Assembly (NCBI GenBank): GCA_964016885.1 | Contig: OZ024740.1 | Location: 165,416,001-165,480,000, forward strand | Reading direction: 5' to 3' | Length of the DNA stretch: 64,000 bases | DNA from: Eledone cirrhosa | Lineage: Eukaryota | Shown here: piece by piece, positions 5,576-28,967 of the stretch | How the letters are laid out: each line of letters begins with the position of its first letter | Numbering within the stretch: position 1 is the stretch's first letter | The notes under the pieces: model-generated | Seen by the model: the letters and a program-made list of their open reading frames with translations, nothing else | Told to the model about the DNA's origin: nothing | Database searches by the model: none | Made by a program: the position numbers and the translations under genes

Positions 5576-5665
<90 letters not shown>

Positions 5666-5667
<2 letters not shown>

Positions 5668-6200
5668 CAAATTAATAACATCTGGTTGAGAGCTTTTATT
5701 CTGAATGTTAGCGCAAATTATAATATTTCCTTTGTTAACACTTTGAATCTACCCGCCAAAAACGGGGTTGCTTCCCTTGTTGGAAATAACACGTGACAAC
5801 TAAGTGTAAGATAGCTGGCTTATAGCAGCAGCATTTAGCTCGTCCACTCCATTTTTTGGCAGAACGGAATCCCTGTTGATGAAATGAATCCGCTGTTCGA
5901 TTATGGAATACCACGAGCGTGCCTGTTACGTAATTTGGATATTTGATTTCGGATTCATAGAAACACTTTAAACGTTTATCGTTTGATTTGTCCAGGTGTA
6001 TCTTTTTAACCTGTTCGTTTATTCGTTACTTTGGTATTGTGTGTTAGGTTTTGCCTACCAAAATGTTCAATTTGTCAAGCTATTTAAACGTATGTTATTA
6101 CTCTAAAGACCTACCCTAATTGAATGCTTTGCTAACTCATTCATATTGCAGGTCGTCTTTGCTTTCCCGCGGCCAAAGCTTCGATTTGACTAAGCTTCCG

Positions 6201-6202
<2 letters not shown>
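5666..6202 (+). mobile_element. Unclassified ~600-bp family, copy X
   Basis: Shares ordered motifs GGTTGAGAGCTTT, GCCAAAA..GGGGTT, CCTGTTGA..TGTTCGAT, AGAAAC and a terminal CCCGC.. block with 25394-26348 and 28327-28967. Bounded by (TA)n. Strand is inferred. Confidence 0.55.
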
Positions 6203-6267
<65 letters not shown>

Positions 6268-7019
6268 CTGTATGAATCTGTTTAAGCGCGAACGCGTACA
6301 TCTCTATATTTGTACAATTTTCTTTAAATCATTTTCTTCTTATTGAAGTATGTTACGAAAAGTGCTCTATAAACATATTTTTAATGCTTTGAAATCATAA
6401 TTTATTAATATATCGTAGAAACCCTTTCATGCATATATCTAGTTACATATATCTAAATATATATTACATAATTTATCAAACCTATCCTTATTTGGTTCAT
6501 TTCTTGACAGTGATACGTTTAAGTAGCTTATATTTTAAATATGGTAATATACATGCGTAGACGTATATATTTATATGCATAGTATATACACATGAAATGT
6601 GTACATACACACTCACATATACATGGTACGTGTGAGTATGGGGCGTTATTGTGTATGTATTTATATACTTATTTATATGTCTATATATATATATATATAT
6701 ATATATTAATAAGTATATAAATTAGTATATAAATACATAGGTATACGCACACAATACCCCCCCCCCATATATATATATATGTGTGTGTGTGTATGTGTGT
6801 ATGTGTGTGTGCGTGTATTTCATTGGCATCTCTCGGTGTCGAGAATTTGATTTCGTTGAATTATTTTATAAGTTCTAACATGGCTGTATAAGATTATTTT
6901 TGAAGTAAAAGAACCGTAGGCTGGAGGGGATTAGAAATAGTGTTCAGGAATAAAATGTACCGAAACGAACCAACGAGCTTACAATCGTCAGACAAATACC
7001 TTAAACACTAAATCATACA

Positions 7020-7051
7020 ACTTAACACATACACCAAACACATGCATACAC

Positions 7052-7120
<69 letters not shown>

Positions 7121-7156
7121 AATAGATGTATATATATACACACACACGCACACATA

Positions 7157-7216
<60 letters not shown>

Positions 7217-7257
7217 TGTATGCATGTGTGTTTGTATGTTTGATGTATGTGTTAAGT
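7020..7257. repeat. (TA)n-centred foldback
   Basis: Left arm ACTTAACACATACA..CATGCATACACTGAT is inverse to right arm ATCAGTGTATGCATG..TGTATGTGTTAAGT. Confidence 0.7.
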
Positions 7258-7326
7258 ATATAATTGTATGTATATACATAGACATCGAATATTATTATTA
7301 ATATTTGAAAAACTCAGATTACATTA

Positions 7327-7829
7327 TCTATATATATAAAACTGAGGATGTCTGTCTGTGAGTGAGTCTGTGAGTTTGAATCCCTAAAACTCGAGAAGTA
7401 CCCAACCAATTTTTTTCAAACTTTACATGTGTATTACTTATGTTTCAGGGAGTGCCATGCACATAAAATTCAACTTTTTGATCTCTTATGGCCCGCATTA
7501 AGTGAAAAATTGCGTTTTTTCAGCTTTTTAGGTTTTATTTGAGGCGTTACGTCAGACCGATTTCCTTGAAATTGTAACTATGTATTAGGCAGTCTCTTCT
7601 TCATACCGTGAGCCAGAAAATCCTACTTTTTTATGGCCTAGGGCCCGCATTAGGTGAAAACCTGCATTTTTCCTGCTTCATCGACGAAAATCTTAAAGAT
7701 TATCCAGCCATCGAGTATTCGGTTTATTTTCTTTACATATTCCAGGCATGCAGTTTTTCCACGATTAGGTCTGTTGGCGGCCCGCGTTCCAAAATACCTT
7801 ATCTCGTGCAACGCCGGGTACCACTGCTA

Positions 7830-7830
<1 letters not shown>
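7327..7830 (+). mobile_element. Non-autonomous Helitron
   Basis: Begins TC (TCTATATATATAAAACTGAGGATGTCTGTCTG) and ends with a GC-rich subterminal hairpin-like CTCGTGCAACGCCGGG followed by CTAG. Inserted between A and T with no TSD. Confidence 0.8.
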
Positions 7831-7862
<32 letters not shown>

Positions 7863-7865
<3 letters not shown>

Positions 7866-9818
7866 AAAAATTGAACGGGAACAAAACAGAGGCACTACGA
7901 ACAAAGGTTTATTAGTTTCACGCTCTTGAGAGTGGGGTGGTGGTGAGGAACGACGTTTCGGGCATAAGCCCTTCTTCAGGTGAAAAGTGTGTGGGAAGAG
8001 AGTTCCAAGGGTGTGTAGGAGAGTGGTGGAGAGACATATAGAAAAAAGGGGTGAGAGGAAACGGTACAAATGAAATTAAATATAAAGGCATGATCAAAAT
8101 AAAATTAAAAATACACATGGAGTATAACAGGTGGTGGAAGGATGTGGGGCGTGTAGGGGTGGTGGCCAGTGGAGTGGGGAGAGGGAGACGGGGTGTCCGA
8201 GCGGGGAGGGCTGAAGGTGGTGTGTGTCTAGGTGTACGTGTGTGTGGGTGTGTGTGTGTGTGTATGTGAAAGTAAGAGTTGGGTAAAGAACGGGGTTGCA
8301 TGTTCAGGAAGAGGTGTGTGTGGGGTGGGCTGTAGGTCGGAGTGTGTGTGCGTGTGTGGATAGAGGGGTAGGGGGAGAGGATTCCGGAGGCTGAATGTGT
8401 AAATATGTGGTGGTACGCATGTGTGTGTGTGGTGTTTATGCGTGTTGTGGATATAGGTGGCGTGTGGGGTAAACATTTTTGGGGTATATGTCGGAGGGTG
8501 AGTCGTTAAGGTAATTCCGTAGACGGTGTGTTGGAATGCTGAGTAATATCCTTGGGATGTGGTGGATTCTCGGGATCAAGGTTCACATATGTGTGATCCG
8601 TGAAGAGATTGGTCGGAAGAAGGGGAGATGTGGGGTGCGCGCGAAACAGGAAGTGGTCAGAGGGTCAAGGCAGGAGGAGAGTTGTGTGTCTGTGTGTGCG
8701 GGGAGGTGGTCAGAGAGGCATAGCAGCAGTAGGATAGAATGGTAAGTGAAGAAAGTCGGTGTGTCAGTGTGTGCGGAGGTGCGGTGGACAGGGGAGAGGA
8801 TGGGTAAAGGTGTGTAAATTGGAGTGAAGAGGGGGTGTGTGTGTGTATTAGTAGAGGTGTTAGTAGGATGTGTGTGTGTTTGAGAAAGGGTGTGGGTGGA
8901 GTGGGGAGAGAAGGGTGTGGGGGCCGATGGAGGGAGTGTAGTGTACTGGTGTGTGTGTGTGCGTGTTTGGATGACTGTGTGTGTGGTGAAGGGGGTGTTA
9001 GTGGGTGTTAGTATACTGAAGGTGGAGAAAGGTTGAATGCGGGTGTGAATGGGGGTCAGTGGTGGTAGGGTGTGTAGAGTGGGTGGTGTAAGAGGGTGAG
9101 TGTGTTCGTGTGCGTAGGGTTGGGGGGTGTTAGTGATGTTAGTTGCGTGTAGAGTGGGTGGTGTAAGTGGGTGGGTGTGTTCGTGTGCTTGGGGTCAGGG
9201 GTGTTAGTGATGTTAGTTGCGGGGTGGTGGGGTGGATGTGTGGGGGTGAGGGTTAGTGGTGGTAGTAGGGTGTGTGTTTAGTGTGAGCGCCTGTATATAT
9301 GTACCGGTGGGTGTGTGCCTGTGATAAGTAGGGGGAGGAGAAGAAGGGGACAATGGTAGTATGTTAGTTGTGGAAGGGTGGTCGGGTGTGGGGTGGAGAT
9401 GTTAATATTGTTAGTTGTGGGGTGGCCGGTGAAAAGGAGCGGTGTGTTAGTGGTGTTAGTGGGGGATATGTGTGGGAGGAGGGGGCGGTCGAAGGCTAAA
9501 GGAATAAGGGTGGGGAGTTCATTGTTCGACGCTGAGGAGAGTGGCGGGTGTTCCGTGGCATTGGAGTAGCCCACAGACTGTGAGGTGGTGTGTGGAATGT
9601 CCAGGGGCACCAACGTGGCGGGCGATGGGGGAACTACCACCGAAACGAATATCCCGGAGGTGTTCAGTAAATCTGTCCGCCAGGCGACGTCCAGCCTGTC
9701 CGACGTAAGTCGCGCTGCACGGAGTGCAGCGAATTCCGTAGACTAGGTTGGAGGAGGTGCAGCGGAAGGCATGCCGGACAGAGAGAGAGTGGCCGTTGAG
9801 CTCTGCCGTCGGGGTCAT
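7863..9818 (-). mobile_element. Penelope-like element 3' fragment (same family as 2530-5572)
   Basis: GIY-YIG remnant FRCTSSNLVYGIRCTPCSATYVGQAGRRLADRFTEHLRDIR (9519-9818), a homologous C-rich 3' region, and a hammerhead core at 7952-7979. Ends at (TA)n. Confidence 0.88.
7952..7979 (-). ncRNA. Minimal hammerhead ribozyme core (PLE pLTR)
   Basis: CUGAAGA-A-GGGC-UUAU-GCCC-GAAA-CGUC. Helix II is perfect but helix I pairing is weak. Confidence 0.6.
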
Positions 9819-10289
9819 ACATTTTCCTATTACCCACTCTACTACCCTAAGTATTGAGTATCTTACTTACTGTGGTTACCCCCGATGGAACCTGGTATTA
9901 TCTTACATATATACATATATATATAACAATTTTGAAAAGCCTCACAGTTGCTTTGTCTTCGCTATTTTGTAGCTTATTCATTATACACTATTCTATAGTG
10001 TGGTTTGCAACAATGTCACCTCTTTTCTAGCGGGCATATTTTAAAATACATTTCCACTACGGTCATCATATTTGTTTTTCATCCAACAGATTGTTAAGTA
10101 TAACAGTCACTGTATTTTTCTTTTACGACAGTGGGGTGTGTTTATATTCTTGCATATCGTGTAGTCAGTAGCTAAGTGTCTCGGAAAGAGTTGTAGCGAT
10201 ATTGTGAAATCCAAGCTAGCTGACGAACACTGGCTGTCGACCTGGACGCAGCATAATGTAGACCTAGAAATGTAACTCTAGAATTCGGT

Positions 10290-10700
10290 CATCAGAAGAA
10301 GGGAGTATGTGTAAAAGGGAAACACGTTATTTTCAATTCGGTATTTGTGCCAACCATTACTTCTGATCATGATAATTAGGGAACGGCTGAAATAATGCGG
10401 CCGAAAAGGTATTCCTCCGAAAAGTCCGTAGAATAACGTTACCCGATAGTGTGTGTAGCTCGAGGATCAGAGAGTTGCTCAAGGTAGATCCGCTGCCTCG
10501 CCAAATTGAAAGATCACAGCTCCAATATTACGGTCATGTTATTAGAATGTCTCAGGGAAATCCCTTGGACGGATTTTATATGCAAAATCAACCGGCAGGA
10601 GACCCAGGCGTAGACCACGAGGAAGATGATTAGATACTGTGCTTGAGGACTCTGTCTCAAGCCATCCCAGGAATATGTTGGCGAAGGCAGAAGAAGAATG
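10290..10700 (+). mobile_element. Degenerate RTE-clade LINE 3' fragment
   Basis: SSRIRELLKVDPLPRQIERSQLQYYGHVIRMS followed by a GRRP.RRPR.RW-like stretch. Related to 19330-19995 and 32597-33150. Confidence 0.7.
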
Positions 10701-11976
10701 CAATGAAACATGTCTAAATTCCATTTGCCTTAATACTTATAGGACCATTGAAATATGGTTGCAAGCGAAAGAGAAAAATATGTCTACGGAGAAGAATTTT
10801 CAGAAACCTTTGAATTCATGAATTAAAGTAAAATAAATGCTGGAATTTTGGGAGATCTCAAATTAGATAACTGATGACAGATAACAATTATGACAACAAT
10901 ATGGTGGCCGTCTCGTAGATAGAATTGGAAATTATTCTTCGAAACGTCTTGAATCTTTAAAGGTTTCAGGTTACATACATTTAGTTGAAAATAAGATTAG
11001 TAACTTTCAACAACTGAAATGTAGGTTAAGGAGGTTTTCTCCCAAATTTGTCCAAGTATGAAAATAACACATTTCTATTAAGAATTGAGAGTTGGTGTGC
11101 AATTTTTGTTTTAGTTGTTAATATACATTTGTAGATGCCTCTTTATTTAAAATGAATATGATGTTGTAGAAAATATAATCGGAGGTCAAATCTAGAAAGA
11201 GCATATAAAAGTTAATTACATGAACACACACTTACTAGAAAAAAATTACTAACAAGTTCTATAATGCTGACTAATGTAATTGTTACATCATTCGACCTTC
11301 TCCGTCGGGATAATAACAATGATCAATTCTCAGTAGAGTATGATTTATCACTGTTAACTTAGTACAAATTATTATATACGGGCTAAAATCGTTCTGGAAG
11401 TGGCAATGACATTGAACATGTGTTGGCGGTAAATATTGCCATTGAGCCAGTCCCAGATGGAAAATTTCTTACATGTTAAATAGTCGGTCAGCCTGGATAA
11501 ATAGTGAAAGAAAAAGAGAATGACAACACAAGGATAGAAAGAAAGAGATGAAAAGAAAGAAAGAGGAAGGGGTGTCAGAGGTTGAAGGGATGGCAGAAGG
11601 CCGAATGAAAACCGGATATTGAGTGACCAGATATGTGAAACAGATTAGATTTTGTTAGTCACAAGCATCCATATTGAAAGAAAAAGAGTGCAAGGAGTAA
11701 TATGAAATAAAATAATGCTCATGACTCTCTAGAATAACAGACAAAACAAGAATACAGCACTGAGTGGATATGCAGTTAATTTCTGCTCTCTTTGGGGCAT
11801 TATGGTACATATTACGGACGACATTTTCTAGCTTGTAAAGATTTCGAGATTGTGAATAGAGACAATATGTATTGTGATCAGTGGTGATTTCGACTTAGTT
11901 ACATCTATTTTTTTTGGTTCTGCCTGTCTGCCTCTTTCTCCCTCATTCTCTCTTGCTGTATCCCTCTCTCTATCTT

Positions 11977-12033
<57 letters not shown>

Positions 12034-12299
12034 ACACATCAATACCGACACACACCAAAAATACATGCATTTGCTCATTCATAGACACGTGTACACGTAC
12101 AAAACATTTATTTCGGGTTCATTTTATGTAATAATGTTTTAATTAACGACCGTATGTATAACCTTATAATATTCTCCTATATGCTCATCATTCGAATTTT
12201 ACACACGGGAACACACACAGACACTCACACACAATCACACACACTCACACTATATACAAACAAACGAAAGCAGAATTACCTTTGTCAGTTTCAACAGAC

Positions 12300-12512
12300 A
12301 CGTGTAGACATAAACTAATGTTCAGTGCCAATCACTGTGACGAGGCTGCACCTTTGAATTACATGTACAGCTCATCCGTTGGGTTCCAAACAGTTTCCGT
12401 CTACCCAATCTCATACATACTGCATTGGCCGATTAGAGGCTGTGTTAAACGACCATGGTAGAACCTGGGGACCTAATGATTGTGAGGCGAGCCTCTTAAC
12501 CATTTAGCCACA
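12300..12512 (-). mobile_element. Second tRNA-derived SINE family, degenerate
   Basis: Minus strand starts GTGGCTAAATGGTTAAGAGGCTCGCCTCACAATCATTAGGTCCCCAGGTTCTACC (A-box and B-box like). Confidence 0.6.
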
Positions 12513-13099
12513 CAAACATATACAGATCAGAAAGAAAAGGTTACGAGAGCTTGACCTATTCTTTTTAACGTGATATTTATCTCACCGAATTATAAATATA
12601 CCTTCCTCGAGCCAAAAATATAATCTCTACACCAACATCTATCAAGAATAGCATGAATAAAAACATAAATAAATATAAAAATACAAATATAAATGCTCTA
12701 AATGTTACTACAATCAGCAACAAATATAAGCAAACCTGGAAACAAATTCCAAAATACCTGAAGTCATATAAACCAGTTTTAAGGAATGCATGAAAGGTGA
12801 AAAGGTCGTGGAAATAGATGTAGCTACATACGTCACTGACTAGTACCAACTACTCACCTTAGCTAAACTATGTGTCTACATCTAATAGATGATAGTTCAA
12901 CTATTATTAGGAAAATAATTGAAGTAAGCAACAAGTATATAATCAAACATAGAACCACAAACACATTTATTTTCAAATATTTTGACATGGAGGTGATACT
13001 AATATTTCATTACATATATTGTACACTCAGAAAACAATACACTACTAATCAGAAAATTTTACAAAACCCAAAAGAAACTTTACAGAAAGACGCATTCGT

Positions 13100-13720
13100 G
13101 CCGTTAATGTTCTGATTAAATGTTTGCAGGTCTATCCGTTCAGAATATATATGAGGAAGGAGTTATGTCCTGAGGATCGACGTTATGAACATGGTGATTA
13201 GTGTACAGTCAGTGTGGTTGGAAAAAAACGTGGCTGATGAAAGGAGGTAAGACGTGTGGTTCTGGAATGTCTGAGTAGAGGTGCCGTAAGTTCACCAAAC
13301 TCTAAGGACTAGAAAACGTTGTAGTTAGACTAGACAAGGCAAGGAGATGAGATAGTACGTCGATAGCCTGGAGAATGCCAAATATTGATTTTAAAACGAT
13401 TAGCCATTTGGCTTATTTCTGGATGAGGTCTAGTTTAGCAGTGTCAGCAGGAATACATTCCCAGACGTGGGGGCATTATTCCATTATGAGTTTCAGCTTA
13501 GCTTTCTACAGAGTCATTAGTTGTTGGAAGTTGAAGCATTTTTCTGGACATGAATAGAGGTGCCAGTCAGTGGGATGCGGTTCTATCTATGTTTGGTGTG
13601 TCTCATTGATAATTAAAAAAGCCGAATTGAAATCCTGAAGTGGTCAACTTAGAATTTCAATCTGCCAAGGTTCAATAAACTAAGTATTAGTCAAGTCTGC
13701 ACACATACAACTTTATAGAC
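13100..13720 (-). mobile_element. Degenerate CR1/L2-like LINE 3' fragment
   Basis: Minus strand gives KAKLKLIME*CPHVW...LDLIQK*A, resembling the YK..RP.MEY..HVW C-terminal block. Confidence 0.5.
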
Positions 13721-14006
13721 AGCTTCACTACACGAACGCCCACATTGGGATCAATAATTTCTTTATTTGGAAGTAACCAGTTATAGTCGTTTGATACTTG
13801 TGAATTCATAGTTAAAATATGATTGTCACAGCAGAAACCATCAATCGAAGCTTAGCTTCGCATATTTCCTCAAATAGATAATTCTTATTTTCTGTTTCTA
13901 TCCGTCTGTCTCTCTCACAAGCACACACACAAATCTGCGCGCGCAGACATTCACTCCCTCCCTCTCTCGTATTCTAATCTCTGTTTTCTTGCTATACTGA
14001 ATAATT

Positions 14007-14189
14007 GTTTCTACTATTGGCACAAGGCCAGCAAATACCCAGTACATTACTGGTACTTTATTTTATCGACCCCGTAAGGAGGAAAGGCAAAGTTAACCTC
14101 GGCGGGATTTGAACTCAGAATGGCAAGGGCCGTAACTCTATGCGTCCAAGCATGGCGTCCGGCCCTCTACCGACACTGCCAATCCACCT
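14007..14189 (-). mobile_element. tRNA-derived SINE
   Basis: Same family as 295-468. Confidence 0.85.
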
Positions 14190-14579
14190 ACTGAATAATA
14201 AAAGTCTCTTAATATAGTTAAAAGAATTAAATTCCAGCTGCGATTTCCGAACATATTACAGCAACAGGATATTAATAAGCTTTTTAATATATTTTTCTAC
14301 AATATCCAATTTCTCAAGTGTACTAATGTCAAATGTGAACATTTGATTTCGTCAACTGCTATGATGACCATTATTTTTTCTTTCTTTTTTTACCTCTTAC
14401 TGAGTTCACTATACTGGTAATTTGGAGAAAACTTGCATGGTACTATATTTCTTTATGAGACTCGAATCATATGATTAAACGATTGAAGTGAAAGACATTA
14501 GAAGCGATTTTGTCGAACAATAAAAGTTTTGTATATAAAGAGAGTTTACAATATTTCATATATTATGTATGTGTGTGTG

Positions 14580-15065
14580 TCAGCATTATTAGCCCTTTTG
14601 TCTGAAGACTGCCACCATACTCCTACCCTAATATGCCTCATGGTCTCGGCCGACAGGATTAAGAAGACATTTTCCAAGAAGACAGCGAGGGATACACACT
14701 GGAACAGCCACTCCACCTCGTGGATCTCGCCCTTGTAGACAACCAGCTCAACTCTCATAGCAGAGAGTTTGGACGTAGCCTAGTGGTCAAGAACGCCGGA
14801 AGTCTCCACTGCTACAGACTCAACCATAAACCTATCATGGAGCGACCGATATTTGACAGTTTGCCTTCTTCGGCCTGGCGGGAAGCGAAAGCTTGGGCTG
14901 ATAGCTGAACGCGCCAGATTGCCGCCAGAAGAGTTGTCACAATATCTAGCAACCCAGTTGAGGGCCTACCCCCGCGAAACAGGAAGATTGTCATGCGATC
15001 TAGCCAATTACCGTATCCTCGGTCCAGCCCCACTGGCTCGAGTTGGGCAGGGTCTAACTATCTGA
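14580..15065 (+). mobile_element. Possible highly diverged RTE-like 3' fragment
   Basis: GC-richer island. INLSWSDRY and RKLGLIAERARLPPEEL loosely resemble RTE C-terminal motifs. Confidence 0.3.
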
Positions 15066-16048
15066 ACATCTAAAACTGTATATGTGAACATTACTTTTGG
15101 AAATAATATTACTAATATTAGGCTGACTATAAAGTGGCAGAAACATAATGAGGTGTGGATCACACGATACGGACAATTATTATGGACCCTGAAGATATTT
15201 CAATGGCGCTGGATGTAACCAGAAGTGAAGGCTATGCATTAGGAGTAGTAGCCGCCTACACTGTGACAGGGGCTGGGCAGTTAGATTTCATCAGAGGCTT
15301 TTCTAGGAACGTCCCAAATGTTAGTGCTTGTGGAAAGTTGGAATGTCATCTTAGATATTCGCTGGGACTGTGTGTGTGAGGAGAGAGGGTAGCCGATAGA
15401 CAATGGTGTCGCAAAAGCATCGCATATAATTTCAGACATTCCCAACTGTCTTCAAAGTAACGTCTAGTTTACTTGAATGAGCCAATCTAAATCTGGACAA
15501 ACCACATCAGGTCCTGCACATCGTATCTAATTCGAGTATACCGTAAGCCAGTAGTGCAATTTGATTACAATCTAAAATGGTCTCCTACACTATCCACAAA
15601 TGTTATATGCGAAGTCGAATTTGATAATTTACTTGAGTACGACCGTGAGTGTTTCTTCTGTCAAAAAAATACTTACAAAATCCCACTACTAACTTTATTA
15701 TATATCTCAATGCGTCATATAAATTATACCGTAAAAGCATATATTGCAGGCAACAACTTTCTAATCCTCCATCTTTTCAACTTTCACATTTTCACATTCC
15801 ACCTTCCACCCTCTCTCTTTAAGTCAGTATTTAAAGTAAAGATTGTGTATTGTAAATATGGCGAACGACTAAAGAGCCACATAGTATTGGCTTTGATAAT
15901 TAAAAAGATATAAACCCGAATTGTATAAAGCGAAATAGTTGGGTGAATATGGTGTATTTATAGTAGTTTAATAAATTCACATATTTCCAACTTCTTATCA
16001 CTGGTTGAGATCTGTCCCACCTTTGAATGTTCAATTTACAATTATACA

Positions 16049-16087
<39 letters not shown>

Positions 16088-16090
<3 letters not shown>

Positions 16091-17325
16091 GTGGAACACT
16101 GGAAGGTAATATCCGTAGTGGTTGAGCACTCAGTCCAAGGGACGAGTTAGGTTGAAGTGGTTACACAACAGTTAGTTCACCATTCCGGGAACAACTGTTT
16201 CACCTTCAGGGATCTTCAGCTCGGGATGTGTATGGTTATAGGAACAGAAAGGACAACCGTACGAACGCGCATGCGCAGAAACTCGGTCACTTCACACAGG
16301 CAATACTAGACAGCGTGCGGGAAGTGTAAGGGAGATAACTGCGAAAGTCCGGAAAGTTTTTAGGTTGAATATAAAATTAAAAAAATTAAAAATAAAATTA
16401 CAAAGAATCAGTCCGGAGCCTTGTAGTTATGCAATAGATGTTTGGTGACGTATGGACAACGTGTAAAAAATTCACTTCTCGTGTTTAGGCAATCACTGCT
16501 GCGTAATCTCTTTAGGATAGTTATTCGTTCGTCGATACATAAGCCACACGTCGGATTTCCCCTTGCGTATGGCTTGGACTTAGTGATGGCTTTCCATTGA
16601 ATGGAGTAGCCTATACTTGAGTCCTTGAGGGACCATACGTGGTTCGAGAGTTTCGTGGATGAAGGTCTGTCCGGGTATCTAAAAGTAGACTGGTGGTTCA
16701 GGAAATGCTCATTGAATCGGCCCTCCGCCATGCCTACATAGGATTTGACCTCCTGTGGTTCGTTTGGTCGGTTAGAAGTGACCACAGCTTCATAGATTAC
16801 AGCTGGTGGGGTGTTGCTCCTAGGGCTGCTGGTGATGTGGGCCTTCATGTTCTTAGCGCAGGAGTATCCTAGATTAACTTTGTGTCGGTTAAAGATGGGG
16901 CGGTATTTATGACCTATGGGGAAGTGTCTATCTAAGAGGGCTAGACATTGTTTTCCTAGATTGGTTTTAACGTTGAGTGAGAAGGGAGGAGAGAACCAGA
17001 TAGTTTGTCTATTGATGCGCTTACTTTTCTTAATGGTGTTGTTGCTAGTGGGAGAGTAAGTGATGGGTTGTGAGAAGCCGCTGTTAGCTAACACCGTGTT
17101 ATAGTAGGGTGCCGTCCTGTCAAAGATAGCCTTAATAGAGGAGAGGTTTGAGATTCTAGTACTGATATTCTTAACGAAGTTTCTAAAAACAGTGGAAGGG
17201 TGGCATGAGTCCTTGTGAATGTAAGTAAGTTTCTCGTTTAGCTTATGGAAGGGTCTGTGGGTGTGTGTGCGAAGGTCTAAATTAATGTCTAAGAAATCTA
17301 CGCTAGAGAGGTTGGTGGCCACGGA
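16088..17325 (-). mobile_element. Penelope-like element (Naiad-like), 5'-truncated, with 3' hammerhead
   Basis: ORF 16408-17322 has VDFLDINLDL, IWFSPPFSLNVKTNLGK, GIY-YIG VIYEA..SYVGMAE and CGLC..E..LN.RSE. Hammerhead at 16181-16228. Ends in (TA)n. Confidence 0.85.
16181..16228 (-). ncRNA. Type I hammerhead ribozyme, slightly degenerate
   Basis: CAUCCCGAG-CUGAAGA-UCCCUGAAGGU-GAAACAGUUGUU-CCCGGAAUG, with helix I at 7/9 pairs. Confidence 0.6.
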
Positions 17326-17599
17326 TCATGGATGTTTCGGTGCTTATAAACAAAACATCTATCCATAGCCTTTTATCTATCAAAAAGCCACGGGGAAAGA
17401 AGTGATAGCGAAGAGAGAGGAAGACAGAACAAAAGGGAGAAGAAAAAAGGAAAAAAAGAAGTAAACATACCGATACAAGGGAGAACACAGGATAATGGCA
17501 CATGTAAGTGAGTAACCGAAGATATATACATACAAATATATATATATATACTATATATATATATGGTAGCTAGGATGCACAGTATGTTGTGTGTGTGTG

Positions 17600-17649
<50 letters not shown>

Positions 17650-17791: not shown

Positions 17792-17841
<50 letters not shown>

Positions 17842-18230: not shown

Positions 18231-18274
<44 letters not shown>

Positions 18275-18907: not shown

Positions 18908-18996
<89 letters not shown>

Positions 18997-19329
18997 ATTA
19001 TGTCGTAGCAAAAGAATCTAAAATCGCATGACATGATTTCATATTTGAAGACAGCAGAAAATATGCAAGCACAATAGGGATGGCACAACTAAATGTTTAC
19101 TAAAATCTAACTAGTCAATGTATTTTTCGGACACATCAACGATACCTCTGCTATTCATAATCTTCATGAATAAGATCGAAATGTTCAGTCGGGAAATAGT
19201 ATTAAAACTAGTGGCTGTAGGATCAGTCGGCTGAAATTTGTAGATGGCTTGTTGCTACTTAACTCGTTGGAAAGTGATCTCTGAATACACTGGATTTGTT
19301 TGCTGAGAGTGCTGCATGGCATGAATGAA

Positions 19330-19995
19330 AATCAGGGCTGCAAAGCCTAAGGCATTCGTTCTCTTGAGAAAGCCTGTAAATGAAGATACACTGAAACAGG
19401 TGGAGGTACAACTATCTCGGGAACGTCTTCACGATTGGTTGAAGGCAGCAGGCTGATATTAATGCAAGAATTGCTGAAACTAATGCAATAATGTACTAAC
19501 TTCACCTTTGGGTTATCAGAATTCGGTATTCAGACATATACATGCCTATAATCATAAATCTTGAGTAATGACAGAAAGAATAATAACGTAAAAACCAGCG
19601 GCCGAAAGGGTCTTTGGTGTAACGTTATTCAATAGGATAAGTAGCTAGGAGATAAGAGAGTCATTACAGGGAAATCATCGAGAGATCACAGTTCCATTAC
19701 GATGGACATATGTTTAGAATGTCTAAGGAACGGATCACTGGACAGATTTTACGTACAAAGCCAAGGGCCTGGAGATCCTGAAGTAGACAACAAGCAAGAG
19801 GGTTAGATAATCTCAATGTGCTTGGTTGGTCTCGTTTGGAGATATGACCCTCTGGAAAGCTGTCTGAGAAGAAGAAGAAGAAGAAGAAGAAGAAGAAGAA
19901 GAAGAAGAAGAAGAAGAAGAAGAAGAAGAAGAAGAAGAAGAAGAAGAAGAAGAAGAAGAAGAAGAAGAAGAAGAAGAAGAAGAAGAAGAAGAAGA
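19330..19995 (+). mobile_element. Degenerate RTE-like LINE ending in a long (GAA)n tail
   Basis: Remnants ARIAETNAIM, SQFHYDGH..RMSKE; (GAA)n at ~19867-19995. Confidence 0.6.
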
Positions 19996-20349
19996 TATGC
20001 AGTTTATAAAAATGCATCATACGACGAAATATTAGATTTTAAAGGGGAATACACACTAGAAAACAATATATGTTTAAATTCTATATTTATCAGAATATTT
20101 CATATATAAGGGGAGAATACACACAGCCACCTTCTCCATATAATGTATACATTATGGCACAATTGCACAGCATGCTGAGAATGCGTACGAGGATAGAAAC
20201 CAGAATCACGTTGTTGTGAAAATATCTTTGTAATCACTCAGCTAATGTTCCTAGTTACATCATACATACCCGCGCCTCATACACATATGCTTATACACAT
20301 ATACATACACACGTATATATGACTATATTTACATACATAGCTACTCACG

Positions 20350-20382
<33 letters not shown>

Positions 20383-20387
<5 letters not shown>

Positions 20388-20922
20388 AAAAGAATGAAAT
20401 GAAATGAAATTTCTCACTCTTAGTACGGCTGATACTTAAATGTAAGTATGTATACGTACATACATATATGTATACAGACGTACAGTAGTATGTATAAATA
20501 CATGCACACATATATATATATATGTACGTATGGGTTTACCGAACATTTATTATAATTTTCGGTTTGTTTGTAAACAAACAGCCCAAATTAAGCCGTACAG
20601 TGTTCGGCAACCATCGTCACCCTTTTGTTCAACACTGACAAAGGAACGATGAACTAGTTTCAAGCTTATTACCTATCGTCAGCATCGTATACCTTCCTGT
20701 CAGAGGATTGAACGTTTGAAAGTATATACATTCCTTATGCATATTAACGGCTGAGCAGCCTAATTTCCATATCGAGTGAGTTAGTCGGCCGGGGGTACCG
20801 AAAACGATAAATGGAAAAGAATGAAACGAAATTTCATTTCTCACTCTTAGTACGGCTGATATTTAAATGTAAGTATGAATACGAACATACATATATGTAT
20901 ACAGACGTGCAGTAGTATGTAT
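20383..20922 (-). mobile_element. Small non-coding hammerhead element with terminal direct repeats (retrozyme-like / non-autonomous PLE)
   Basis: ~112-bp direct repeat at 20383-20495 and 20811-20922 (period 428). Hammerhead at 20647-20687 on the minus strand. Flanked by TA-rich sequence. Confidence 0.7.
20647..20687 (-). ncRNA. Minimal type I hammerhead ribozyme
   Basis: CGAUG-CUGACGA-UAGGUAAUAAGCUU-GAAACUAGUU-CAUCG: perfect 5-bp helix I, palindromic helix III ACUAGU, imperfect helix II. Confidence 0.7.
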
Positions 20923-20929
20923 ATATACT

Positions 20930-23810
20930 CCAGATAATATCAAATTATCAACACTTAATACGATGATTGACACACAATCCCCTCTTTTAAAGGAAATAGA
21001 AAAACAATCTACAGACGGAAAACTTATAACTGAACATATAAAGTCTGAAATTAAGAATTTAGGTTAAATTATACCAACAGTTATAAAAGATACAAGAGAA
21101 AGCCTACCACAACCCCCTTGGATGTCAGAACTAAACGAAAGAAATTTGGAAAACGAAACACATCGAATAAGAAAAGAAATGTGGAAGACATGGACAACAT
21201 TTCTTAACATAAGAAAAAAAAAACTTCTGGAAAGCATAGAAATGCGAAAAATATGTCGAAACACATTCGAAATGGCTTTGTCTAACGGCACCCATACTCC
21301 TTCGTAAATACCTAATTAAAGAAATTGCAGGAGAGCCAAAAGAAGAAACAAAACTCCGATGGGAACTTACATTGACAAAATTCAGGACCGACATTTCCAT
21401 TACTCAATGTAAACAATCCCGCTACAAAACCAAATACGAAGCTATCGATGACCAAATTGAAGTCGAAATTTCAAAGCTAACGACTGGTAATATAGCTGAA
21501 AAACTACGAGAACTATAGATCAGAGATATCTCAAAAGAAGAAAGCAAATCAAGAAAGTTATGGCAGCAGAAACAATTATTTCTCGACGAATATGCTGAAA
21601 ATTACGGTAAAGACTCTGGAACTCTGAGAAAAAGCATTAAAAGTGGACAATCTCGCCAGAACACGTGGCAACACAAACACACATCTCACCTTGAATCAAA
21701 GAGGTACTACGGTAAGAACTCTTCGCTTTTTCAACAAAAACACCCTAACGCACACAACATGAACAAAAAGCACAAACACGATAGATATTCCTTTGACCAG
21801 ACCATGAGAAGTAGAAAAACTAGGAGATCATTCTCAAGATCTCAACAGAGACTACCCACAAGGAACGGGGAAAAAAACCGTAGAATACCCAGATCACTTT
21901 CAAGATCTCAACAGAGGCTACCCACGAGAAACTGGGCAAAAAAAAAAACGATCTAAACCTGAAAGAAAACCTAAGACATTTTCCCAGATTGTTAAAAATA
22001 ATGCTAACAAGAAATGGAAAAATAATATATATAATACCAAAAATAGGACAAAAAACATAACGAAACTAAATATAATATCACGACCAAACACCAACAGGAA
22101 TATAAATCAAGCAAACACCAACATGAATATAAATCCTGAACAGGAAAAATCCATTGTTTAACATCAGGACAACAACAACTGGAAAAAGAAAAACCCCAGA
22201 AGGAAACATACTCAAAACAATTGAACTCATAGATCCTAAAATAATTAATTTATCCAAAAGAGATCTTGACAATGATCAAATGCAAATTCTGTCAAAAGGA
22301 CTGAAATTCACACAGACTCCAACAGTCAACCACCAAGAACTAAAGGAGGATACCCAAGAATTCTGTCGTAAATTAGTAGAATTCTTCGCTGATAAAAGTA
22401 ATGAGAGTAAAGAATAAATCAAATTTCACTCCGCCAAAAGGAAGAAATATATATCTCGACCAATACATTGATATCCTGTCTAAATTTCCTCTTAGACGTA
22501 ATACTAATGTTAGGCCAAACATTAACAAATCGGAAATGTCTGCACTTAAACTTATACAAATGATAACACAATAATAATTAAACAAGCAGATAAAGGGGGT
22601 GCAATTTTTATAATGGATGCTGAATACTACAAAGATTTGGTTGAGGAACAACTGAAAGACTCAACATTCTACCATGAAATACCGTCAAATATAGACCACA
22701 ACATCATGAAGAAGATCAACAACCTGGCTTTAAAATACTCAACTCACTTACTGATAATGAAAGAGACTACATCACCAATTTTGAGCCAAAACCCAGCAAC
22801 TTTTATAGCTTACAGAAAATTCATAAGTCAAAAGAAATGCAACTGGCAGTAAAAGAAGAAAAAAGTGAATACTTTAAATTACTACATCCAAAAGACTTAA
22901 AACTTAGACCTATTATAGCTGGTCCAACATGCCCTACCCACCATCTAAGCAATTTTGTTGACATTATTTTGAAACCACTATGTATTCACATACCCAGTTT
23001 CATCCGGGATGGTATCGACTTCCTGTCCCATCTCCCCAAAACCACGGAAATGAATTCACTTATACTTAGTTTTGATGTGGTAAGCCTTTACACCAACATT
23101 ACACATGATTTAGGAATAAAGGCGGTTACATACTGGGTGGAAAAAGATAGAGATGTGATTCCGACTAGATTCACAGTGCAATTTATATTAGACGCAGTTA
23201 GACTTATTCTGGAAAACAACACTTTCTTCTTCAATGGAAAGAATTATAGAGGCACATCGATGGGAACGAAGTTTGTTCCCGTTTACGCGAACTCTATAAT
23301 GGGATATTTAGAACAACAACTCTACCAAGAAATAGAGGAAAAATATAGCACTGAATTTAGAAAGTACATTGAAAAGTCTTGGAAGAGATACCTTGACGAC
23401 TGTTTCATCATCTGGACAGAATCTCTATATACTCTGGATGAGTTCAATATCCTCCTGAATAACCTACACCCATCTTAGCTCCGGTCGTTTCGACCTAGCT
23501 GTCGAAACGAACACAGCTTACCGTCGGGGTCTTAACTCTTTTCCTATATATATGTATAGGAAATGAATGGCATTCAAAAACAGCAATGAACTGGACGCCG
23601 CCTGGCGGTAAACGGAGGCGGGGTTGCTTGAGGATCACCTGGCGACGAACGTTCCGGAAGGACCTGATGGCAGCGAACATCACCTGGCACGGTCTCGAAA
23701 AAGTTGCTGCTGATCGTGACCGTTGGCGAGTACTTACTGCTCGATGCGCCGAACGGCGCGGAAGATTCTAAGATAAGATATATATATATCAAATTTAATA
23801 CAGAAATGGC
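20930..23810 (+). mobile_element. Penelope-like element, frameshifted RT, interrupted and 3'-truncated
   Basis: INLSKRDL..QILSKGLKF..TP, IIKQADKGG, RPIIAGP.CPT, SFDVVSLYTNI, GTSMGTKF, WKRYLDDCF and NNLHPS, resuming as IKFNTEM after an insertion at ~23475-23787. Confidence 0.88.
23558..23783 (+). mobile_element. RTE-clade LINE 3' end nested in the PLE
   Basis: WTPPGGKRRRGCLRITWRRTFRKDL...W..LEKVAADRDRWR, followed by a TAAGATAAGA tail. Confidence 0.85.
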
Positions 23811-24409
23811 TGCTACAGGACTAGAACTGTTTCATTCGAAGGAAATTATCAGGAAAGCCTTTACACTCTACTACAGTATTGGATACCTTTGTTTCTGTGG
23901 TTACCCCCGATTGAACCCGGGACTCATATATCGGGGGTTACCTCCCTTTGGGAAAACCATGTGCTTGCTAGCAGCGCTTACTCTAGCACTCACACCCGAG
24001 CGGACGAGAACGAAAAACTTGTTGACGAAGTAAACTCCATTGTTCTATCTTCAAAAACCATTAACTTGCAGACCTCTGCAAGTGGATTTTGTCGATTTCG
24101 GATTTACAGAAACCTAGCGGAGATATTGTAGATTATATGTGATGTATATTATATGGTATACATTATGTGTTGTGTATGATGTCGACGTGATGGTCAAGGT
24201 TAGTCAAAAATGTATCCCTGAGTTCAGTCTTTTTTGTCGCTATGGACACTGCGGCCCTTCTATCGGTCGCTTTCTTCAATTTGCAAAGCTGTCTAAACGT
24301 CATGTTATAACTCTGGGGTTTTATACCCTATTGCGTGCTTAGCTGCACACCGAGACTGCATTCGTTAGCTTGGCTGCAACCATGGCTTCGTTGATGCTGT
24401 ACTAAATTT

Positions 24410-24447
<38 letters not shown>

Positions 24448-24449
<2 letters not shown>

Positions 24450-25320
24450 ATTTTCACTATTTTTCCGATGTAAAACATTAAAAACATATAAGTAATCTTA
24501 TTAATTCAGTTAATTTAATTTAATTTAATTTAAATACTTACACTAAATATAAACTAGTATCCCTCATAATTTATCATCTATAACATTATATACCCATCTA
24601 TCCACTCATATATATATCCTTATATATATCCTTATACCTATATTCTTCTACTTTATATCTATATATTTTAAATCTATTTTTTAATATATTTTAATATATT
24701 TTAATAATTTAATATATTTTTATATATTTTTATTTTTTCTATATATCTAATTTTCTATATACTTATAATAGTAAATAAATGTTTATTATAATAGAATTCT
24801 AACAATTATTAGTAAATATACGTAACATAAATATTTAACATAAACATAAGACTTATTTACGTTATATGAGCTCATCCTCGGATAAGCTTCTTTCTTCGCT
24901 CTTTCTTCACTCTATTTCTTCACTCTATTTCTACATATACTAATATTTTTCTTTTCTCTCGCTTCTTCCCACAGCGTAATTTAAATAAACGGTTGTTTTT
25001 TCAATTTTTCGGACATTCATTTGCATATTCACACATAACTTTGAATTACCCTTAATAAATTTTCACTATCCAGCGAATTTTCAACCGTCAATCCATGGTT
25101 ATGTCACTATTCATAAAACAAATTTTGTATTTTATCTGATGAAAGCGCACCAAGTTTGGCTTGGTCGTCCTTGAAATATATATAATAAAATTAATTATGG
25201 GTTTATGAATATAGTTTCCATTTATTAATATATAGGATATTTACTCCAGTAGACTGTTGAGTGCTCTATACCAGTTATAAACTTTTAAGTTTGTTGGAAT
25301 CCCAACAAATTAAATATAAC
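24448..25320 (+). mobile_element. AT-rich PLE 3'/pLTR-like remnant carrying a hammerhead
   Basis: Lies between microsatellites and contains the hammerhead at 25129-25191. The downstream TGAGTGCTC motif is shared with the Naiad-like 3' end. Confidence 0.55.
25129..25191 (+). ncRNA. Type I hammerhead ribozyme
   Basis: AUUUUAU-CUGAUGA-AAGCGCACCAAG(UUUGG)CUUGGUCGUCCUU-GAAAUAUAUAUA-AUAAAAU: canonical core, perfect 7-bp helix I, palindromic AU helix III. Confidence 0.75.
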
Positions 25321-25342
25321 TTCTACACACACATATATACAC

Positions 25343-25393
<51 letters not shown>

Positions 25394-25396
<3 letters not shown>

Positions 25397-26343
25397 ATAC
25401 CTTGTTCGATCATTATACCAAAAGCTTATTCTTTATAAGCAGACAGTATTATTGATTTAGTGTTGCAGAAACCCAAATTCGGACTATTCCATCTTCCCCG
25501 AGGATCCGGGTAACTATTTCAATCATATCTTATTTTGTTGACCCGTTTAGCTTGTTCGCTTTTTTGGCTCTGGTGGTTAATGGCTTCTTAACCATCGTCT
25601 CAGTTTGTATGACCTTTTTAACTTATGTTTATAGCTTTGGTATCTTCTTCATATCCATGGAGCGCTTGTCTACACATTACGGAAGTTGCGTTTCGTTAAT
25701 TTCTACCCGCCGAAATGCGATTCTCGCTAAATTTATATTTGTATTAATCTCCCAAGTCAAGCGATTAACCAGTTAATTTTTTTGGCTCTTTAGTTAATTC
25801 TATTAACTGATTAATTGCTTAAGTTTACTTTAAAAACAACTTGGTCGAGAGCTTTATTCGTTTTGTGCTATTTTTGCAAATTTTTGCAATAACTACACAC
25901 GCTGAATTCACTGGCCAAAATAGGGGTTTCTCTCCTTGGGGCCTCACATGTGCTTTCATAACCTGTGAGATTCTGGACCACAGAGAACAAAATGCCTGTT
26001 GAGAAAGCGATGCCTTGTTCGATCATTATTCCAAAAGCTTATTCTTTATAAGCAGAGAGTATTATTGATTTAGGTGTTGCAGAAACCCAAATTCGGAGTA
26101 TTCCATCTTCCCCGAGGGTCCGGGTAACTATTTCAATCATATCTTATTTTGTTTGACCCGTTTAGCTTGTTCGCTTTTTTGGCTTAGGTGGTTAATGGCT
26201 TCTTAACCATCGTCTCAGCGTGTATGACCTTTTTAACTTATGTTTATAGCTCTGGTATCTTCTTCATATCCATGGAGCGCTTGTCTACACATTACGGAAT
26301 TTGCGTTTGGCTAATTTCTACCCGCCGAAATGCGATTCTCGCT

Positions 26344-26348
<5 letters not shown>
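25394..26348 (+). mobile_element. Unclassified ~600-bp family, copy Y (about 1.56 head-to-tail monomers)
   Basis: 25394-~25735 is repeated at 26007-26348 (period 613). (TA)n on both sides. Confidence 0.75.
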
Positions 26349-26409
<61 letters not shown>

Positions 26410-27809
26410 AGTTTGTTTCTGTATGTATGATTGCCACTGTGTATATGTATGTGCGTATGTGTGGAGACAGAGAGAGAATAATTGTACGTTTAAATGCTCA
26501 AGAATTTGCGTGTGTCACTGGGTTACGTCTCTGTTGAATGTTTATAGATGACATCTGCATAGAGACAATGAGAACGAAAGAGAGAGGGGTGAAGGAGGTA
26601 CTGCAATAAAATGCAGACAGAGACAGATGTACGTGTATGTATCTCCTTTGTGTGTTCTTGTGCCTGTACGCAGGAATGTGAAAAAGTATATAATGTATAA
26701 AATTAAATCCTTGAGCCAAAAAATTAAGCAAACTTAAAATTTAATTAAGTAGACAAGAAACAGGACTTTAGCCGTCCATGTTTGTATTTATTGGCATCAG
26801 GTGATCATGAAATGGTATTTGTGTGGTGTGTGTGTGTGTGTGTGTCCGTGTGTGTGTGTGTGTGTGCATGTGCGGGTGTGGGTGTATGTGTGTGTGTGCG
26901 CGTGTGTGTGTCTGCGTGCGTGTGTGTGTGTGTATGCGTGTTGCATGTGTGTCTAAGTATAAGTGTTTCTGGCATGCAAGTTAATACGTGAGTGCTGTCC
27001 GTGTGTACTGGGACTCGTGTGTATAATTGTGTGTGTGTGTGTGTGCGTCTGTGTCTGAGTGTGTGTGTGCGTTTATGCAGTGGTTTTTATTTGTGACTAG
27101 CATCTCCTATGCCTATATCTGACCTTAACCAATCAAATGACATTTCCGGTGTTTTGCTTTCATTATCAACCCCACGCCTCCATATCTATACCCTTATAAC
27201 ATTTGATGGAGAACAGAGGAAGCAATACTATCACTGTCTTATTCTTCCCCTCCAATTCCCCAATAAACTTGACTGTTGGCCTGTCCAGTTCCTCAGTTCT
27301 CTACACGTCATTTCACTTACTTCTTTTCATTCCCCTCACCCCTTTGCTACCCCTTGTTTTAGGGGTTTCCTTAACATTTTAGTCTCCTCTTCCCTTTGTC
27401 TGTTTCATTTCTAAATGTTAGTCGTCATTACTGGTATAGGCTCTCTCCCTTTTTTCTAGCTCTAGCAACATTACACCCTCACACAAATACATACACACAC
27501 TCACTGGCACACAAACACAAACACACATACACATACCCACACACATGGATACACTCTGCAACAAACCTCTCTGTTTCACTGCGTATATCACTGTCTCTAT
27601 TGTCATTGACATTTATCAGTCGACGAAAGCCACGGTCTAAAAGGATACGCTCTTTTTGTCTTAATACTTCCATTTTACTCATACAAACCACGAAGACATG
27701 TGTTTGTATATATGTATAATGTTTGTGTGTGCGTACTCATATATGTGTATGTATGTATGTATGTATGTATGTATGTATGTATGTATGTATGTATGTATGT
27801 ATGTATGTA

Positions 27810-27878
<69 letters not shown>

Positions 27879-27991
27879 CTGTGTGTGTGTATGTGGTCTC
27901 TTTCTATGAATTTTTACTTGTTTTTTTTTGACAGGCCACCTTCCTGGTGGCAAGATTGTAGTAAGGAAATTGTCTCTTGTTGTAAGCGCTC

Positions 27992-28108
27992 ATCCTTTGA
28001 ATCGTAAACATGATTTACAGATTTTAAAGTTTCCAGACATCGTGGCTATATGTATGTATCTATGTGTGTGTGTATATCTATCTATATATCTATCTATCTA
28101 TCTATCTA

Positions 28109-28150
<42 letters not shown>

Positions 28151-28283
28151 CAGAGAGAGAGAGAGAGAGAGAGATAAATAGATAGATAGATATATAGATA
28201 GATATACACACACGCATAGATACATACATATAGCCACGATGTCTGGAAACTTCAAAATCTGTAAATCATGTTTACGATTCAAA

Positions 28284-28287
<4 letters not shown>
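27992..28287. repeat. Near-perfect (TA)n-centred palindrome
   Basis: ATCCTTTGAATCGTAAACATGATTTACAG..CATCGTGGCTATATG is mirrored on the right, including the mirrored (TATC)n/(TC)n tracts. Confidence 0.9.
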
Positions 28288-28326
<39 letters not shown>

Positions 28327-28330
<4 letters not shown>

Positions 28331-28964
28331 AATAAAGTTTCAGCGACAATCGCATTTAGGCGGGCAGGAAAGGCGAAGGGAAACGCAAAAATCAGAAATG
28401 ATACTTGCAAAGTGCTCAATAGTTAAAAACCAGAGCTAAACAATGTGTTAAGAAGTCATACAAAACTGAAAAGGGGGTCAAGGCATTAACCACCCAAGCC
28501 AAAAAACAAATTAAGCTAAACAGGTCAAAACAAAATAAAGGATAAAAAATAAATGATAACCAGACCTGGACTCCAGGAATTGCTGTTAAAATCCGATGTA
28601 GAGTTTCTGTGACACCTAAATAAAAATACAGTGTGCTTAAAAATATAAGCTTTGGGTATAATGATCGAACAAGGAATATCACGTTATCAACAGGTATATT
28701 GCCCTGTACCAAATCAGTGAGTGACACGGTGGTAAGTTAAACCACGTATGGAAATCACAAGGAGAATAACCCCAGATTTTGGCAAAGTAATTTTGGCAAA
28801 GAATAGCATAAATAGCACAAATCGAATAAGTTCTCAACCGGGTGGTTTTAAAATAAACTTATACAATTAACCTGTCAATAGGAATTAACAAGTTAATTGT
28901 AGGACACGGGAGATTAATACAAATAAAGATTCAGCGAGAATCGCATTTCGGCGGCCAGGAAAGG

Positions 28965-28967
<3 letters not shown>
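28327..28967 (-). mobile_element. Unclassified ~600-bp family, copy Z (about 1.08 monomers)
   Basis: Reverse complement aligns with copy Y (CCTTGTTCGATCATTATACC.AAAGCTTAT; CCGCCGAAATGCGATTCTCGCT). The terminal ~46 bp is repeated at period 591. (TA)n on both sides. Confidence 0.75.

Follow-up and report, generated by a model that had tools for sequence, protein, structure and literature searches.

What processing motif does a repeat carry whose copies may exceed one unit in length, and what kind of template did such copies come from? A 64,000-nt stretch of the Eledone cirrhosa genome (GenBank assembly GCA_964016885.1, contig OZ024740.1, positions 165,416,001 to 165,480,000; hereafter the window) raises this question with a family of non-coding units of about 600 nt nested in (TA)n. 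An initial annotation had explained three copies as retroposed from a structured RNA with a circular or multimeric template, similar to retrozymes or Penelope-like elements (PLEs) and with an unrecognised processing motif. The general explanation is supported by covarying helices, copies longer than one unit and (TA)n targets. The motif itself reads as a mid-unit type I hammerhead fold with U3 replacing C3, and the terminal GCGA-TTC-TCGC hairpin, which occurs in only two of the four copies, is set aside as processing motif. Four deeply diverged members make up the family, each full unit having a single hammerhead fold on its T-rich strand: c1 (5674-6202, + strand), c2 (25394-26348, +) and c3 (28327-28967, - strand), which are the three copies annotated before, and c4 (23791-24411, +), added here. 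Judged from these sequences, the repeat unit very probably carries a hammerhead-derived fold.

Read along the T-rich strand, the elements come in the order helix I, UUGAN(G/A)A, a single base, helix II, A, GAAA, helix III, GUC and helix I again. The core UUGAN(G/A)A has a U3-A8 pair in c2 and c3 and a U3.G8 wobble in c1 and c4, with position 8 alternating solely between A and G and always facing U3. U4, G5, A6, A9, G12 to A14, the 15.1-16.1 A-U pair and the GUC triplet are invariant in all four copies. The literal consensus C3-U4-G5-A6-N7-G8-A9 is found in none of them (U3 in four, A8 in two). A search for CUGANGA overlooks the family because of this variant core; the earlier observation that CUGANGA is missing holds for both strands of the four copies. 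The block CCTGTTGA..TGTTCGAT had been noted as conserved, which it is, and we now read it as the hammerhead core plus a pseudoknot strand. A relaxed hammerhead descriptor, composed after the copies had been inspected, matched once per full unit in all four copies, each time with GUC and only on the T-rich strand, while none of the four opposite strands and no other site on either strand of the window matched. Dinucleotide shuffles of the four copies gave 1, 0, 1 and 1 matches per 1000.

With registers set by hand and bulges skipped, 18 of 20 cells were paired in helix I across the four copies, all 12 in helix III, and all 32 in the 8-bp helix II, where five of the eight positions had double changes. 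A predicted 6-bp pseudoknot between the leader and the strand directly after helix II was paired in 24 of 24 cells, with one double change and several G.U exchanges, and its leader strand lay at -14 from U3 in every copy. Sliding the strands by 1-3 nt left 8-12 of 32 cells paired in helix II and 6-13 of 24 in the pseudoknot. Helix II extends into a substructure of ~55 nt, whose loop II carries an inner hairpin in every copy and holds invariant unpaired bases. Helix II is flanked by a single unpaired base at either side, A.A in three copies and C.A in one, and the pair beyond these bases at the helix II base is G-C in three of four copies, so that either a mismatch or two insertions can be read. 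The unconstrained minimum free energy (MFE) structure of the c2 domain is a three-way hammerhead junction. Whole units compared with 25 shuffles each had z scores of -1.6 to -4.3 on the T-rich strand and 0.0 to -3.5 on the other. Covariation analysis, which the initial annotation had proposed as a check, came out in favor of structure, with helices covarying in the four-copy alignment above shuffled and slid controls. In the unmodified MAFFT alignment, counted with c1 helix III gapped and helix II limited to its outer five pairs, 95.8% of 96 cells paired and 7 of 25 pairs were doubly changed. Slid versions reached 28-42%, and 0 of 500 shuffles reached the observed pairing, a shuffle control that ignores the relatedness of the copies and does not yield a probability.

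The hammerhead of c2 (25985-26125, +) is the best candidate for an assay, with pseudoknot strands at 25985-25990 and 26015-26020, the core at 25999-26005 (U3-A8), G12 at 26082 and C17 at 26120. The first repeat of the same copy retains a decayed half hammerhead (25394-25511, +), comprising the 3' half only and no core, with one G lost in helix II, the triplet AUC and C17 at about 25506. In c1 the fold spans 5862-5997 (+), with the leader pseudoknot strand at 5862-5867, the core at 5876-5882 (U3.G8), helix II from 5884 and at 5951-5958, G12 at 5960 and predicted cleavage after C17 at 5992. That of c4 (24008-24200, +) has its core at 24022-24028 (U3.G8), G12 at 24109, C17 at 24195, a long helix III and a G.A mismatch as the first pair of helix I. 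The c3 hammerhead (28564-28704, -) has its core at 28690-28684 (U3-A8), G12 at 28607 and C17 at 28569. An invariant GGGGTT block occurs upstream of each hammerhead (5764, 23934 and 25923 on the + strand, 28773 on the - strand); its candidate partners are a local hairpin, a conserved downstream block and the GAAAC strand of the core.

Besides the limit of the shuffle control, several points weigh against this reading. The sample comprises only four sequences, which had been viewed before the descriptor and the helix registers were picked. The core deviates twice, with U3.G8 in two of four copies and A.A or C.A at 10.1-11.1, a position usually held by G-C, and cleavage may therefore be slow or absent. 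The nested MFE structures of c1, c3 and c4 pair the leader with helix I and the core, and across the four copies a forced hammerhead without the pseudoknot is less stable than the MFE structure by 3.9-7.5 kcal/mol; pseudoknot stacking amounts to roughly 7-9 kcal/mol, loop costs left out. In these models, the leader may compete with the core simply because the YUGUU word is repeated, or the competition may act as a switch. The c2 domain is of ordinary stability (z -1.52; 19 of 200 shuffles fold equally well), and no copy in the window has two complete hammerheads, the longest, c2, having one and a half. The family 3' ends showed no similarity to those PLE relic ends in the window with which they were compared, and long-range helices outside the hammerhead did not exceed a column-shuffle null (4 seen versus 1.85 ± 1.57 expected; 9 of 60 shuffles reached 4). 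Among predicted Xenopus retrozyme dimers, 8 of 9 remained uncleaved in vitro (Li et al., bioRxiv 10.64898/2026.07.22.740005). We consider it probable that the hammerhead is active in master copies.

An Rfam scan, likewise proposed earlier, found nothing at the gathering threshold in the window; with the cut-off relaxed to E ≤ 10 on c1, c2 and c3 it listed 57 and 33 matches, nearly all to flanking microsatellites and none to a ribozyme family. This miss carries little weight because the minimal PLE hammerhead at 5464 was missed too. Resemblances to hepatitis delta virus, twister, pistol, hatchet and hairpin ribozymes, RNase P and telomerase RNA, judged by eye from their motifs, were not conserved across the copies and were set aside.

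The three copies annotated before are homologous, lie where they had been placed and are each flanked by (TA)n, and the periods of 613 nt (c2) and 591 nt (c3) were reproduced. The count had lacked c4 and a short fragment at 9835-9898 (+), similar to the upstream part of c4 and without hammerhead. A profile of c1 to c3 found c4 at 23930-24349 (nhmmer, E 1.1e-14), from where it extends to the limits given above, and c1 alone also recovered it (E 1e-11). Membership of c1 was upheld, its local alignment scores of 82 and 105 exceeding the shuffle maxima of 54 and 55 (200 shuffles each). The start of c1, annotated at 5666, lies at 5665, and the first 9 nt (5665-5673, +) are not family sequence; they are an inverted flank copy, a fold-back at the 5' junction with its source across the (TA)n. 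Pairwise identity among the four copies is 46-68% and the GC content of the units is 36-42%. A covariance model returned only these four copies and the c2 half hammerhead, a search of bacterial and archaeal genomes with the core pattern gave 0 matches, and blastn of c2 against phages and plasmids gave no match.

As stated before, the copies contain neither a conserved ORF nor a tRNA. No ORF was shared among them, and a coding relic was rejected, given that tblastx matches were scattered over many frames and interrupted by stops. ARAGORN found 0 tRNA genes. A tRNA-derived short interspersed nuclear element (SINE) was also rejected, with no A box at a common position and a B-box-like word in three of four copies (absent in c4); this word overlaps the pseudoknot strand.

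The anatomy of the insertions bears on the template. All four copies are abutted by (TA)n, as are the 3' ends of three PLE relics in the window, and in a check for target-site duplications every junction lay inside (TA)n. The microsatellite occupies 5579-5664 and 6203-6264 around c1 (~0.9 unit), whereas c4 (~one unit) has (AT)5 on its 5' side and (TA)n at 24412-24451 on its 3' side. The 5' ends vary, with copy lengths of ~0.9, ~1.0, 1.08 and 1.56 units and head-to-tail overlap in two: c2 has 1.56 units with repeats at about 25394-25745 and 26007-26348 (94.9% identity over 354 nt), and c3 has 1.08 units with a terminal direct repeat of ~50 nt (91.8% over 49 nt). Counted from the predicted cleavage site, the 3' ends lie 210, 228, 242 and 216 nt downstream in c1, c2, c3 and c4, never at the site. 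Mapping of end points thus confirmed that they cluster, all four within a 32-nt arc of the 600-nt unit (chance ~6e-4), although the end is not identical as had been annotated: c2 ends 5 nt and c3 15 nt past the motif thought to terminate every copy. That motif, with its GCGA-NNN-TCGC hairpin, is present in c2 and c3 and absent from c1 and c4, which end at the aligned place with diverged sequence. In c2 (26322-26348, +), where the motif lies, and in c3 (28327-28363, -) the unit continues past the 3' end as TA-like sequence, a continuation that offers microhomology to a nicked (TA)n target.

A linear cut monomer primed at its end is excluded because no copy ends at the cleavage site. Every copy spans a cleavage site and c2 spans two, which leaves an uncut multimer or a religated circle as the template. 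When c3 is taken as the outgroup, the two repeats of c2, which differ at 17 places, carry 7 and 6 derived changes, and 4 changes stay unpolarised; two of the rows lie at the alignment end, and pair-breaking changes are present in both repeats. As far as the sequences go, this fits repeats that were identical at insertion and then decayed neutrally.

We regard target-primed insertion driven by PLE machinery as highly likely, and lean only slightly towards a circular rather than an uncut multimeric template. The family is likely a group of ~600-nt non-autonomous retroelements of the non-LTR (lacking long terminal repeats) retrozyme or non-autonomous PLE kind, whose type I hammerhead is elaborated; that it cleaves, that the RNA is circular and that a partner element exists are all things that we infer. 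In the mechanism proposed, a master with at least two units would be transcribed from the T-rich strand, and its hammerheads would cleave after GUC, helped by the 6-bp pseudoknot that would tie the helix I leader to the end of helix II. The monomer would then be ligated into a circle. A PLE GIY-YIG endonuclease would nick (TA)n, and the PLE reverse transcriptase (RT) would prime at one constant, TA-like position inside the RNA. Synthesis would pass the ligated site and halt near one turn (0.9, ~1.0 and 1.08 units) or later (1.56).

The same hammerhead and PLE-type insertion could also operate without a circle, if the template were a linear multimeric transcript that cleaves slowly, stays uncut and has a defined 3' end, or if the overlap arose by template jumping. 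A fixed 3' end would be natural for a linear RNA, the variant core may cut slowly, a leader-core hairpin could block cutting, and PLE hammerheads are described as poor cleavers in vitro (PMC4209133). Set against this are the c2 repeats, which appear identical at insertion (7 versus 6 derived changes), the 5' ends, three of four of which lie near one unit, and the complete helix III, with which a monomer could cut itself; none of these is decisive, and we consider a template of this sort rather improbable. Further from the retrozyme or non-autonomous PLE reading, the copies could be solo pseudo-LTRs (pLTRs) or 5'-truncated ends of autonomous PLEs with a hammerhead-bearing pLTR, given that PLE insertions are mostly 5'-truncated and pLTRs contain hammerheads (PMC4209133; bioRxiv 10.64898/2026.07.22.740005), and that c4 lies ~300 nt downstream of a PLE-type RT relic. 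The head-to-tail repetition of the entire unit at 613 and 591 nt in c2 and c3 leaves no space for an ORF, however, and short (TA)n runs and an unrelated piece resembling a long interspersed nuclear element (LINE) separate c4 from the RT relic (by eye), for which reason c4 was rejected as the 3' end of that relic. We judge solo pLTRs or truncated PLE ends unlikely.

More remote still is a rolling-circle DNA element, such as a non-autonomous Helitron-like element, or a satellite fragment, with the folds as single-stranded DNA signals or chance. Helitrons start with 5' TC, end with 3' CTRR and insert between A and T. Points of resemblance to such elements are partial tandems, a CTRR-like tetramer lying 3-13 nt ahead of each 3' end and, in c2 and c3, a subterminal hairpin, but no copy ends in CTRR followed by T, a TC start occurs in c3 only, and the core, GAAA, A-U pair and GUC stand in hammerhead order on one strand in all four copies despite 46-68% identity. 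A DNA origin is therefore very improbable. Equally small is the chance we give to a hammerhead-derived but catalytically dead fold, retained as a binding or recognition element for PLE proteins. Such a role would allow for the two core deviations that are fixed in the family and for the invariant unpaired bases of loop II; U4, G5, A6, A9, G12 to A14, the 15.1-16.1 A-U pair and GUC are nevertheless invariant, and positions 3 and 8 can pair in all four copies.

The retroelement reading, with its elaborated hammerhead, can be set beside known systems, as they are described in parts of the papers cited. Animal non-LTR retrozymes are 150-450 bp long and expressed as circles (Cervera and de la Pena, 2020, PMC7229834), and the preprint links retrozymes to pLTRs, gives sizes of 51-972 bp, reports cleavage in 1 of 9 dimers and describes dispersed monomer derivatives (bioRxiv 10.64898/2026.07.22.740005). 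The Eledone family resembles metazoan non-LTR retrozymes in that its unit is non-coding, carries a single type I hammerhead and stays below 50% GC, and in showing head-to-tail overlap and co-occurrence with PLEs. Its length falls inside the range of the preprint (bioRxiv 10.64898/2026.07.22.740005), in contrast to the 150-450 bp given for invertebrates, which its ~600-nt unit exceeds (PMC7229834). Unlike retrozyme arrays, it forms dispersed (TA)n insertions of 0.9-1.6 units with clustered 3' ends, and unlike the canonical form, with a 4-bp helix II and loop-loop contacts, it has U3, an 8-bp helix II, an elaborated loop of ~55 nt and a pseudoknot. No copy in the 64-kb window corresponds to an "active" retrozyme, defined by a tandem of at least two units with complete hammerheads.

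PLE hammerheads have a helix II of 7-8 bp, a helix I of 4-5 bp, an unpaired base after A9 and a helix II bulge; a U3-A8 variant occurs among them in Cercyon, and circular templates were proposed (PMC4209133), a model that is presented as proposed and untested (PMC4209133, PMC7229834). The comparison set includes this Cercyon variant and large-helix-III forms from fungal and protist PLEs (PMC4209133). Like PLE pLTR hammerheads, those of the family are type I, with a helix I of 4-6 bp and a helix II of ~8 bp with an occasional bulge (PMC4209133), an unpaired base after A9, U3-A8 and a location upstream of the 3' insertion end. They differ in the complete helix III, the extra A before G12 in all four copies, U3.G8 in two of four, the large loop II with inner hairpin and pseudoknot, and the lack of a linked ORF. 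PLEs show partial tandems, 5' truncation and (TA)n targets, and Naiads are reported to lack canonical hammerheads (PMC8557442). Partial tandems, 5' truncation and microsatellite targets are thus shared with non-autonomous Chlamys PLEs (MRC1) and with (TA)n-targeting Naiads, clades that are reported there without canonical hammerheads, unlike the family; non-autonomous Chlamys-type PLEs also share 3' sequence with their partner (PMC8557442), whereas no such match was found among the relic ends compared in the window. Among natural hammerheads, U3-A8 occurs and is active, ~40% have pseudoknots and U.U is found at 10.1-11.1 (Perreault et al., 2011, PMC3088659). The family resembles the pseudoknot-stabilised ones in its Watson-Crick pseudoknot joining the helix I and II regions, its U3-A8 and what may be a mismatch at the helix II base (PMC3088659), and differs in having A.A or C.A instead of U.U and a pseudoknot strand that lies in an internal loop and is followed by a further long hairpin (PMC3088659). 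The giant squid is listed with 235 Rfam hammerhead-1 loci (PMC6962438).

Several RT and GIY-YIG relics occur in the window, and their assignment to PLEs comes from DKG, GIY-YIG and CCHH-type motifs, as described in PMC8557442. It rests on motifs because the sole Pfam families obtained for the RT relics and for relatives of theirs were RVT_1 (for one presumed PLE relic), zf-RVT and two weak unrelated ones. In three PLE relics, which terminate in (TA)n, a minimal CUGAAGA hammerhead precedes the end by 95-114 nt, with the same polarity as in the family. One RT relic has its top identities with Octopus proteins, at 73% (67% of the query covered) and 78% (46% covered), and its best E-values with bivalve proteins at 51-60% identity. 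Two related PLE relics, 2530-5578 (+) and 7863-9800 (-), face each other and both end in (TA)n, with minimal CUGAAGA hammerheads at 5464 and 7979, ~95 nt before the ends. A 5'-truncated PLE-like relic at 16088-17520 (-), between (TA)n, comprises an RT end plus a GIY-YIG-like domain at the C terminus; its minimal hammerhead has an unpaired U on both sides of a 2-bp helix II (by eye), and the 7 relatives found (32-41% identity) bear no informative names. The relic at 20386-23545 is a frameshifted PLE-type RT in which 122 nt are duplicated (20380-20501, 20807-20928) and an inverted segment carries a minimal hammerhead at 20682 (-). A common short motif lies between PLE relic and c4-type sequence at both 23478-23546 and 9799-9834. 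A loose scan, run without chance control, picked up more hammerhead-like cores upstream of (TA)n at 706 (+) and 31560 (+).

Other elements surround the family. A tandem array of ~4.5-kb non-LTR retrotransposons with (TTA)n spacers (34650-55500, -), which we take to resemble R4/Dong elements, includes two copies with intact 1141-aa RT ORFs that have a C-terminal endonuclease-like region and are ~99.8% identical. Two related RT relics with zf-RVT (28997-30351 and 56800-58400, 69% identical), presumably of the L1/Tx1-like clade, are also present, the first starting directly after the 5' (TA)n of c3. The 3' (TA)n of c3 abuts a 296-bp near-perfect palindrome (27992-28287, 96%) with a microsatellite centre, and comparable fold-backs lie at 648-824, 2204-2434, 5570-5673, 7020-7257 and 61052-61239; an assembly artefact or fold-back repair at (TA)n would account for them. 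A dispersed SINE-like family of ~180 bp occupies 283-469, 2001-2189, 14000-14188, 32205-32297, 34476-34656, 60369-60502 and 62187-62307.

These results place an unclassified repeat in the retrozyme/PLE group. It was missed because standard hammerhead searches require C3 and a small helix II. The literature searches turned up no description of the family or of its architecture in cephalopods; a library name may exist in Repbase or Dfam, which lay outside that search. The 3' ends, ~220 nt from the cleavage site, together with near-unit copies offer a clean test of circular-RNA copying by PLE machinery, and the predicted pseudoknotted, monomer-type ribozyme is a natural test case of core tolerance (U3.G8, A.A at the helix II base). 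More tentatively, the features combined may point to circular RNAs of ~600 nt that form an old and diversified class in cephalopod-like genomes, built on a distinct type I hammerhead subclass. That subclass, as doubtful as the class itself, would be marked by fixed U3, a purine-rich mismatch at the helix II base and a pseudoknotted junction with hairpin extension. It is conceivable, at the same low strength, that the leader toggles between an activating pseudoknot and a core-blocking hairpin, and that the PLE primes at one fixed position inside the circle. If this combined picture were true, ribozymes would have been overlooked in many unclassified (TA)n-nested repeats, and perhaps in PLE clades described as hammerhead-free, and a direct test of the circular-template model for PLE retrotransposition would become possible.

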